Of a DNA stretch of 64,000 nucleotides, positions 5,678 to 6,346 are shown in pieces. Positions within the stretch are counted from its first letter, which is position 1. The number at the start of each line of letters is the position of its first letter. Under the pieces are notes generated by a model, which saw only the letters and a program-made list of their open reading frames with translations, had not been told where the DNA came from and made no database searches. The DNA lies in the NCBI RefSeq assembly GCF_056712565.1, contig NZ_CM160072.1. One strand, written 5' to 3'. Both the position numbers and the translations under genes were made by a program.

Positions 5678-5703
5678 ATGCCCGTCAAGGATTTGACGGG
5701 CAT
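5678..5703 (+). terminator. stem-loop directly downstream of the autotransporter gene (11-bp perfect stem, 4-nt loop, no clear U-tract)
   Basis: ATGCCCGTCAA-GGAT-TTGACGGGCAT; position fits a terminator or stabilising hairpin. Confidence 0.4.
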
Positions 5704-5722
5704 TACTGCAAAGGACGCGCAA

Positions 5723-6346
5723 ATGTTATCTGTAGTTAAACCTCTTCAGGAATTTGGTAAGCTTGATAAATGTTTGTCCAGATACGGTACGCGCTTCGAG
5801 TTTAATAATGAAAAGCAAGTTATATTTTCCAGTAATGTCAATAGCGAAGATACTTTCGTTATTTTAGAGGGCGTTATCTCTTTGCGTAGAGAAGAAAACG
5901 TACTTATCGGTATTACACAGGCTCCTTATATTATGGGGCTGGCTGATGGTTTAATGAAAAACGATATACCATACAAATTAATATCAGAAGGAAACTGTAC
6001 GGGATATCATTTGCCAGCCAAACAAACCATTACTCTTATTGAACAAAATCAACTCTGGCGAGACGCTTTTTACTGGTTAGCCTGGCAAAATAGAATTCTG
6101 GAATTACGCGACGTTCAGCTCATTGGGCATAATTCCTACGAACAAATCCGCGCGACGTTATTATCAATGATTGACTGGAATGAAGAATTGCGATCACGTA
6201 TTGGCGTGATGAATTATATCCATCAACGTACACGTATATCGCGTTCTGTCGTTGCGGAAGTTCTTGCTGCTTTGCGTAAAGGCGGCTATATCGAAATGAA
6301 TAAAGGCAAACTGGTCGCTATCAACCGTTTGCCTTCAGAGTATTAA
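5723..6346 (+). CDS. yaiV: uncharacterised protein YaiV, putative regulator with C-terminal Crp/Fnr-like HTH
   Basis: ATG at 5723 (MLSVVKPLQ...) preceded by AAGGA; ORF-track start 5678 lies inside the upstream hairpin; C-terminus TRISRSVVAEVLAALRKGGYIEMNKGKLVAIN resembles Crp/Fnr recognition helices. Confidence 0.75.
   Translation: MLSVVKPLQEFGKLDKCLSRYGTRFEFNNEKQVIFSSNVNSEDTFVILEGVISLRREENVLIGITQAPYIMGLADGLMKNDIPYKLISEGNCTGYHLPAKQTITLIEQNQLWRDAFYWLAWQNRILELRDVQLIGHNSYEQIRATLLSMIDWNEELRSRIGVMNYIHQRTRISRSVVAEVLAALRKGGYIEMNKGKLVAINRLPSEY

Follow-up and report, generated by a model that had tools for sequence, protein, structure and literature searches.

Among the described RNA elements, the intrinsic terminators of the Enterobacteriaceae come close to the one analysed here, hairpin B, a perfect stem-loop located between the autotransporter gene ehaB/yaiT and the regulator gene iprA (yaiV) in a 64,000-nucleotide stretch of Escherichia coli DNA (contig NZ_CM160072.1; the window, from whose first letter all positions are counted). 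Other systems to be considered are the 5′-terminal stabilizing stem-loops of the ompA type in E. coli mRNAs, reportedly described by Emory, Bouvet and Belasco in 1992, and the leaders repressed by CsrA (glgC, cstA and pgaA type), which combine a GGA in a hairpin loop with a GGA in the Shine–Dalgarno (SD) sequence; systematic evolution of ligands by exponential enrichment (SELEX) gave the consensus RUACARGGAUGU for CsrA. Hairpin B is a real, conserved and unannotated terminator-like RNA stem-loop of an ordinary kind.

With the intrinsic terminators it shares a GC-rich perfect stem, a 4-nt loop, a position 38 nt after a co-directional stop codon (TAA, 5635–5637), compensatory changes on the sense strand and, in orthologues, a TTTTT(T) run. 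It differs from them by the degenerate U-tract of Escherichia (CAUUACUGC), by abutting the SD sequence of the next gene and by an apparent promoter just upstream. As in the ompA-type elements, a strong stem would be placed 0–2 nt from the 5′ end if transcription started at about 5677, with the SD sequence free; however, in many of the orthologues a transcript begun there would be terminated at the T-run. The resemblance to CsrA-repressed leaders would lie in the CAAGGAU of the apical loop and the AAGGA of the iprA SD sequence, 24 nt apart, but the loop GGA is absent in Kluyvera, Trabulsiella, Yokenella, Pseudocitrobacter and a paralogous cassette. The downstream gene belongs to the IprA/YaiV family (NF008810, HTH_46): the open reading frame (ORF) from 5723 matches the 207-position model end to end, whereas the model does not cover a 15-codon extension from 5678, which shows no conservation at the protein level.

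Structure and evolution of hairpin B

5676 to 5705, + strand: hairpin B, a 13-bp perfect stem with a 4-nt loop; conserved non-coding RNA stem-loop
5711 to 5715, + strand: Shine–Dalgarno sequence AAGGA of iprA, 7 nt before the ATG at 5723; second GGA of the leader
5723 to 6346, + strand: iprA (yaiV) coding sequence, 207 aa and stop; putative CRP/FNR-like winged-helix regulator, 'hydrogen peroxide resistance inhibitor'

The two arms, TAATGCCCGTCAA (5676–5688) and TTGACGGGCATTA (5693–5705), enclose the loop GGAT (5689–5692). An 11-bp stem that had been noticed earlier, ATGCCCGTCAA (5678–5688) paired with TTGACGGGCAT (5693–5703), is exactly as then described and forms the core of this longer stem. 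No perfect short-loop hairpin of the window is longer: dinucleotide shuffling predicts 0.01 hairpins of at least 13 bp per 64 kb, compared to the one observed. Folded alone as RNA, hairpin B has a free energy of −19.8 kcal/mol (z = −7.8), and it is kept in the fold of its 111-nt context (z = −4.5). The stem contains six G-C pairs and is equally stable on both strands; stem and loop both fall within the limits of an intrinsic terminator (~5–14 bp and 3–8 nt, respectively).

In 25 genomes, taken from across the whole ranking of 5,386 matching records, the hairpin block has no annotated feature, and an Rfam scan of positions 5000–7000 at a permissive threshold returned only sub-threshold chance matches (E at least 1.8), none reaching its gathering score. 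A repetitive element, such as a repetitive extragenic palindrome, a bacterial interspersed mosaic element or an enterobacterial repetitive intergenic consensus sequence (REP, BIME and ERIC), was considered and rejected, as hairpin B is found at a median of one place per genome (range 1–2) across 5,384 E. coli genomes.

The 40-nt block from 5671 to 5710 shows at least 99% identity, in single copy, in 5,371 of 5,386 E. coli records, and the surrounding 1 kb shows 95–99% identity in most of 5,420. As far as sequence comparison goes, the hairpin block is under strong purifying selection in E. coli. The hairpin is present in Escherichia, Citrobacter, Salmonella, Raoultella terrigena, Intestinirhabdus, Trabulsiella, Superficieibacter, Kluyvera, Phytobacter, Yokenella and Pseudocitrobacter, and its end always lies 18–22 nt from the iprA ATG.

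Covariation was assessed in an alignment of 33 sequences from more than 10 genera, with slid pairings and 500 shuffles as controls. Compensatory, both-sided changes occur in 8 of the 12 stem pairs of this alignment; paired cells amount to 94.7% in hairpin B versus 31–45% in the slid controls, and none of the 500 shuffles attains the observed values. Arms such as CCCGCCA/TGGCGGG, CCCACCA/TGGTGGG and GCTCGTCA/TGACGAGC illustrate these changes, and even the path from a U-A pair through U·G to C-G is visible, leading from CCCGTCA/TGACGGG via TGGCGGG to CCCGCCA/TGGCGGG. Read on the + strand, the non-Watson–Crick positions in the 30 distinct variants are G·U in 13 cases and A·C in 3; counted as roughly independent events the ratio is about 8 to 2 (p ~0.05), which is suggestive but not decisive. 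The loop varies between 3 and 8 nt in length. It contains a GGA (as ANGGA) in 18 of the 30 distinct variants while the adjoining loop bases change (GGAT, GGAG, CGGATT, AGGACC, ATGGACAG, CGGAT); the other 12 have no loop GGA, and many of them have strong T-runs. On the Escherichia, Citrobacter and Salmonella subset, RNAalifold recovered hairpin B alone, with no covariation inside this clade, because the hairpin is almost invariant there; the covariation comes from the wider set. Together, the covarying arms, the G·U bias on the + strand and the variable loop length argue for a hairpin that evolves as a + strand, sense RNA structure, rather than as a DNA operator or as part of a − strand RNA.

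Proposed roles: terminator-type punctuation or iprA leader element

The reading that we favour, with a probability of roughly 0.55, is that hairpin B is a terminator-type punctuation hairpin, acting on + strand transcripts before the iprA ribosome binding site (RBS), which stabilizes upstream 3′ ends and is leaky in Escherichia. A T-run comes directly after the hairpin in Kluyvera (GGGCTTTTTTG), Yokenella, Pseudocitrobacter, Superficieibacter and Phytobacter, and also in two further lineages and in the paralogous cassette of Citrobacter farmeri, GGGCATTTTT being another example among these; the T-run-bearing orthologues are predicted canonical intrinsic terminators. The upstream gene, with the ehaB/yaiT stop codon on the + strand, is co-directional. 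The original prediction had taken the hairpin for a terminator or stabilizer of this gene. Such a role remains plausible in view of the T-runs of the orthologues and of the fact that hairpin B is the sole strong stem-loop after the stop codon in Escherichia, Citrobacter and Salmonella, but it is weakened by the poor tail in the window.

In this configuration, two tandem hairpins, a weak hairpin A′ directly after the autotransporter stop codon and then hairpin B, would punctuate the conserved autotransporter–iprA gene pair. Hairpin B would fold on the arrival of RNA polymerase from the autotransporter gene, or else from the FNR/sigma-70 promoter region within the last ~100 nt of that gene; it would stop or attenuate transcripts about 10–20 nt before the iprA RBS and protect their 3′ ends. 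Transcripts that read through, or that start close to the hairpin, would carry it in the iprA leader with the SD sequence left unmasked. Since the U-tract is degenerate in all Escherichia examined, we infer that termination in E. coli should be leaky, and so the iprA message should carry the hairpin in its leader.

A number of observations weigh against this reading. The tail after the stem in the window is CTGCAAAGG, or ATTACTGC with the A-U pairs opened; it has 3 T in the first 8–9 nt and thus falls short of the U-tract of an intrinsic terminator (at least about 5 T in the 8 nt directly after the stem). A TransTermHP-style tail score, calculated in part by hand, is borderline at about −2.25 to −2.5, and a scan for consensus promoters and terminators called nothing at hairpin B in the window. 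No mapped RNA 3′ end near the hairpin appears in the supplementary tables consulted from published 3′-end data; in those of Adams 2021 (eLife) there is no yaiV/iprA entry, the only entries being for yaiT and ampH, elsewhere on the − strand. The gene upstream of hairpin B in the window is an IS2-disrupted pseudogene. The distance of hairpin B to the iprA ATG is constant and that to the upstream stop codon variable, and an intact stem is found in Kluyvera cryocrescens and Kluyvera genomosp. 1, which have no autotransporter gene, and in Salmonella diarizonae, which has only remnants of it. The fixed spacing and the retention of the stem without the autotransporter suggest a role tied to iprA. Moreover, were iprA transcription to begin at a promoter just upstream, efficient termination at the hairpin would abolish the iprA transcripts as well.

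The evidence for such a promoter concerns the following sites.

5643 to 5670, + strand: predicted sigma-70 promoter of iprA, with −35 TTCACT (5643–5648), a 16-nt spacer and −10 TTTAAT (5665–5670); predicted +1 at about 5677
5585 to 5598, + strand: FNR-type site GTGACGTAGATCAA, a motif match inside the 3′ end (last codons) of the autotransporter gene
5651 to 5671, + strand: predicted CyuR site, from a motif scan (PMC11408624, Table 1, 'position −75' of yaiV)

On the basis of genomic SELEX with RNA polymerase, the yaiU>yaiV spacer is listed as having a predicted constitutive RpoD promoter, TTCACT-18-TTTAAT, together with H-NS binding (Shimada 2014, PMC3946193). Chromatin immunoprecipitation (ChIP) sequencing placed a sigma-70 peak at 393,682 (U00096.2), corresponding to about position 5675 of the window, with a value of 509 under anaerobic versus 82 under aerobic conditions (Myers 2013, PMC3688515, Table S2). 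The same study reports the FNR site GTGACGTAGATCAA at 393,590, an FNR ChIP peak at 393,651 and H-NS coverage, and the iprA locus is H-NS-silenced in K-12 (PMC3946193, PMC3688515). The −10 element TTTAAT is conserved in Escherichia, Citrobacter and Salmonella. An FNR site within the palindrome itself was considered and rejected, both the published site and the one found by scanning being at 5585–5598.

E. coli strains differ by a CT (2-nt) indel at 5658–5660, between GAAATA and GGTAA, where the window has GAAATAGGTAA and the K-12 type GAAATACTGGTAA. The window allele thereby has 16 rather than 18 nt between TTCACT and TTTAAT. The indel also lies within the predicted CyuR site, given as GAAgAAATacTgGtAATTTAaTC in PMC11408624; the window allele is 2 nt shorter. 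A −10-like TTAAAT is found at 5621–5626, exactly the position required for a class II FNR promoter (site at −41.5). It is possible that iprA is transcribed in this way, in which case the transcription start site (TSS) would be near 5633 and the ~90-nt leader would contain both hairpins. No match to an iprA TSS was found in the Cappable-seq tables (by coordinate, in both genome versions) or the SMRT-Cappable-seq tables (by gene name) that were consulted; these absences, like those of 3′ ends, come from data that are truncated or of low expression and do not count as evidence of absence. Given the promoter evidence upstream and the lack of room for a promoter between hairpin B and the ATG, the hairpin is very probably transcribed within the iprA leader too, besides lying on the 3′ side of autotransporter transcripts.

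The main job of hairpin B might then be in the iprA leader, either as a 5′-terminal stem that, like the one of ompA, would protect against 5′-end-dependent decay by RppH and RNase E, or as part of a two-site CsrA target for translational repression, or both. This is the main alternative, and we hold it only tentatively. It would agree with the promoter evidence immediately upstream, with the absence of promoter room between hairpin and ATG, and with the −10-like TTTAAT kept in Escherichia, Citrobacter and Salmonella. It would also account for the 18–22 nt spacing, fixed in all lineages and in the paralogous cassette, and for a hairpin that is kept where the autotransporter gene is lost. A fold of 5677–5760 retains a 12-bp stem at the 5′ end. 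As to CsrA, the loop keeps its GGA in 18 of 30 variants despite changing neighbour bases, and the loop GGA (5689–5691) and the SD GGA (5713–5715) are separated by 24 nt, within the 10–63 nt of CsrA site pairs, as a match of motifs in the sequence; apart from the CAAGGAU of the loop, the SD sequence contains the only GGA. On the other hand, the +1 at the base of the stem, which we infer from the promoter motif, would be replaced by one at ~5633 under class II FNR control, and E. coli alleles have promoter spacers that are not of the same length (a 2-nt difference). The 12 variants without a loop GGA are at odds with a CsrA target, and the strong T-runs that many of them carry would end a transcript begun at the base of the stem. 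In the paralogous cassette, the loop is GAAT, and the part of Potts 2017 Supplementary Data 2 that was consulted has no yaiV row. A yaiT′ row in the CsrA table was discarded as support: its 'Yes' flag reflects only a sequence-based prediction (Kulkarni 2014) with no cross-linking immunoprecipitation (CLIP) peak, and says nothing about the hairpin.

A more elaborate arrangement, which we think rather unlikely, would make hairpin A′, hairpin B and the AU-rich linker a conserved, hitherto undescribed cis-regulatory leader of the autotransporter–iprA cassette. An FNR-activated, H-NS-silenced promoter in the 3′ end of the autotransporter gene would produce a short RNA ending at hairpin B, through premature termination or attenuation, read-through would provide the iprA mRNA, and CsrA would set the translation of IprA via both GGAs.

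That the palindrome serves instead as a DNA operator, bound by a dimeric regulator (IprA itself, FNR or CyuR) controlling the iprA promoter, is very improbable. That a perfect 30-bp palindrome precedes the gene of a transcription factor and has a sigma-70 ChIP peak beside it does invite this interpretation, as do the FNR binding and the predicted CyuR site reported in the region. However, the FNR site is elsewhere (5585–5598), the predicted CyuR site (5651–5671) is upstream of the stem, and the half-sites GTCAA-N4-TTGAC are everted compared to the FNR consensus TTGAT-N4-ATCAA. The arms change sequence yet stay complementary and their spacing varies between 3 and 8 nt, so that there are no fixed half-sites. 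Where the arms are asymmetric, G·U prevails on the + strand (13 versus 3), a bias that would have no meaning in duplex DNA.

The chances are slimmer still that hairpin B is a terminator on the − strand for antisense transcription through iprA from the convergent ampH gene. The tail is richer in T on that strand (TTTAGATTAAATT), and the stability of the stem is the same on both; with an A-rich 5′ flank, Escherichia, Citrobacter and Salmonella have a U-rich − strand tail. The stop codons of ampH and iprA abut, so that an ampH transcript can end no earlier than inside iprA. Against this, the wobble positions would be A·C mismatches in a − strand RNA, an A-run ahead of the stem is missing in most other genera, and a terminator-like site for ampH already exists at 6326–6313; one placed past the whole of antisense iprA would protect nothing.

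The iprA start codon

5678 to 5680, + strand: in-frame ATG within the left arm, start of the mechanically determined longest ORF of 222 aa; not the real start

The original prediction was that a 222-aa YaiV is 15 codons too long and that the hairpin is not coding. Its premises hold: the longest ORF (5678–6346, 222 aa) indeed opens at an ATG inside the left arm of the hairpin, and the ATG at 5723 is preceded by AAGGA at 5711–5715 with a 7-nt spacing. The conclusion is strongly supported by annotations, by the NF008810 model and by in-frame stop codons. The correction of the start codon to 5723 is not new, as public annotation already carries it. The curated K-12 record NC_000913.3 has iprA (b0375) at 394506..395129 with 207 aa (NP_414909.2), equivalent to the ATG at 5723, and the RefSeq records of three other E. 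coli strains use the same equivalent ATG.

The NCBIfam model NF008810 (IprA equivalog) aligns with all of its positions, 1–207 of 207, to residues 16–222 of the 222-aa ORF, leaving residues 1–15 unmatched; the product also contains an HTH_46 (Pfam) domain. Homologues are mostly 206–208 aa long among the 120 listed, and Met16 of the long ORF is invariant in a 22-sequence homologue alignment reaching down to 50% identity. No SD sequence is found upstream of the ATG at 5678, a codon that is buried in the stem. The block TGCAAGGA at the iprA SD sequence is conserved in alignment A2.

For a wider comparison, 80 loci from other Enterobacteriaceae were assembled. An in-frame stop codon lies at most 45 nt upstream of the conserved ATG in 54 of 79 loci. 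Among the 40 hairpin-bearing loci outside E. coli, 23 have one within 48 nt, and a further 6 have no in-frame ATG in the extension. In E. albertii, a TAG is present at −12 before the iprA ATG; in-frame stop codons occur in many Citrobacter, and several Citrobacter and Raoultella have a TAA at −3. In Citrobacter gillenii, AAG replaces the ATG at 5678. Annotations, the NF008810 match, the invariant Met16 and the in-frame stop codons all lead to the same conclusion, that the 15-codon extension is not coding.

The idea that the ATG at 5678 is nevertheless a genuine, possibly alternative, start and that the hairpin encodes the first 15 residues of a 222-aa isoform is hardly credible: the frame is open in E. 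coli and in 11 of the 40 other loci, and a few database entries have 222–223 aa (e.g. P0012 and P0085), but the codon is without SD sequence and sequestered in a stem of −19.8 kcal/mol, the ATG is lost in C. gillenii, stop codons interrupt the frame in E. albertii and 22 other loci, conservation tracks base-pairing rather than codons, and all current curated and RefSeq annotations as well as NF008810 use 5723.

Locus context and implications

3274 to 5637, + strand: C-terminal fragment (beta-barrel) of the ehaB/yaiT autotransporter, with stop TAA at 5635–5637; TIGR01414 matches residues 391–787
5640 to 5656, + strand: hairpin A′, a weak hairpin immediately downstream of the autotransporter stop codon, with 6 bp in the stem (TTCTTC/GAAGAA) and the loop ACTCC

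The locus is the E. coli ehaB/yaiT–iprA(yaiV)–ampH–sbmA region, which 5,418 of the 5,426 complete genomes of the species contain. In the window, ehaB/yaiT is a pseudogene split by IS2 (~1982–3255, − strand; TnpA 2845–3255, TnpB 1982–2887), with an N-terminal fragment, including the signal peptide, that begins at 1314. The IS3 of K-12 sits at a different position in yaiT, which implies at least two independent inactivations of the gene. A 479-aa ORF on the − strand (4159–5598), antisense to the beta-barrel region, is most likely spurious. At the other end, the iprA stop codon (TAA, 6344–6346) abuts that of the convergent ampH gene (6347–6349, − strand), so that the 3′ end of each mRNA should be antisense to the other gene; the terminator-like site for ampH inside iprA (6326–6313, − strand) is weak.

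The order of a co-directional autotransporter gene followed by iprA is near-universal. In S. Typhimurium, iprA reportedly belongs to a two-gene operon (Herman 2016), with which transcription through the hairpin would agree. The arrangement of stem-loops between the two genes varies. At the A′ site, Citrobacter and Salmonella have different yet complementary arms (TTTCTC/GAGAAA, TTCCTC/GAGGAA and ATTCCC/GGGAAT, by eye), and a strong GC hairpin with a T-run, hairpin A, occupies this position in Enterobacter, Leclercia, Kluyvera and others. The strong hairpin A with its T-run is the sole one in Enterobacter, Leclercia and Lelliottia; Kluyvera, Phytobacter, Trabulsiella and Pseudocitrobacter have both A and B; Yokenella has B only; and Escherichia, Citrobacter and Salmonella have a weak A′ and a strong B. 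With A, B or both being strong depending on the lineage, at least one strong stem-loop follows the autotransporter gene everywhere, and in E. coli this is hairpin B.

Citrobacter farmeri (CP081314.1; L085, 30–3624) has a second pair of an autotransporter gene and an IprA-like gene (59% identity), with LacI-family and RbsD neighbours and no ampH. Hairpin B is retained in this pair; one A-T pair has become T-A by a compensatory swap, the loop is GAAT and there is a T-run. Its presence with the hairpin in a different context indicates that both genes and the hairpin travel as a cassette.

For annotation, the consequence is that longest-ORF tracks over-extend iprA by 15 codons that are really structured RNA, a matter that the databases have already settled. 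Were the cis-regulatory leader outlined above to exist, a regulator of oxidative-stress resistance would be connected with both anaerobiosis and the Csr system. As a regulator, IprA is poorly understood; it lowers peroxide resistance, and few non-coding features of the locus are as strictly conserved as the stem-loop that lies 18 nt ahead of the iprA start codon. Hairpin B is thus a sensible first target for studying how the expression of iprA is shielded from the autotransporter gene upstream, or tied to it.

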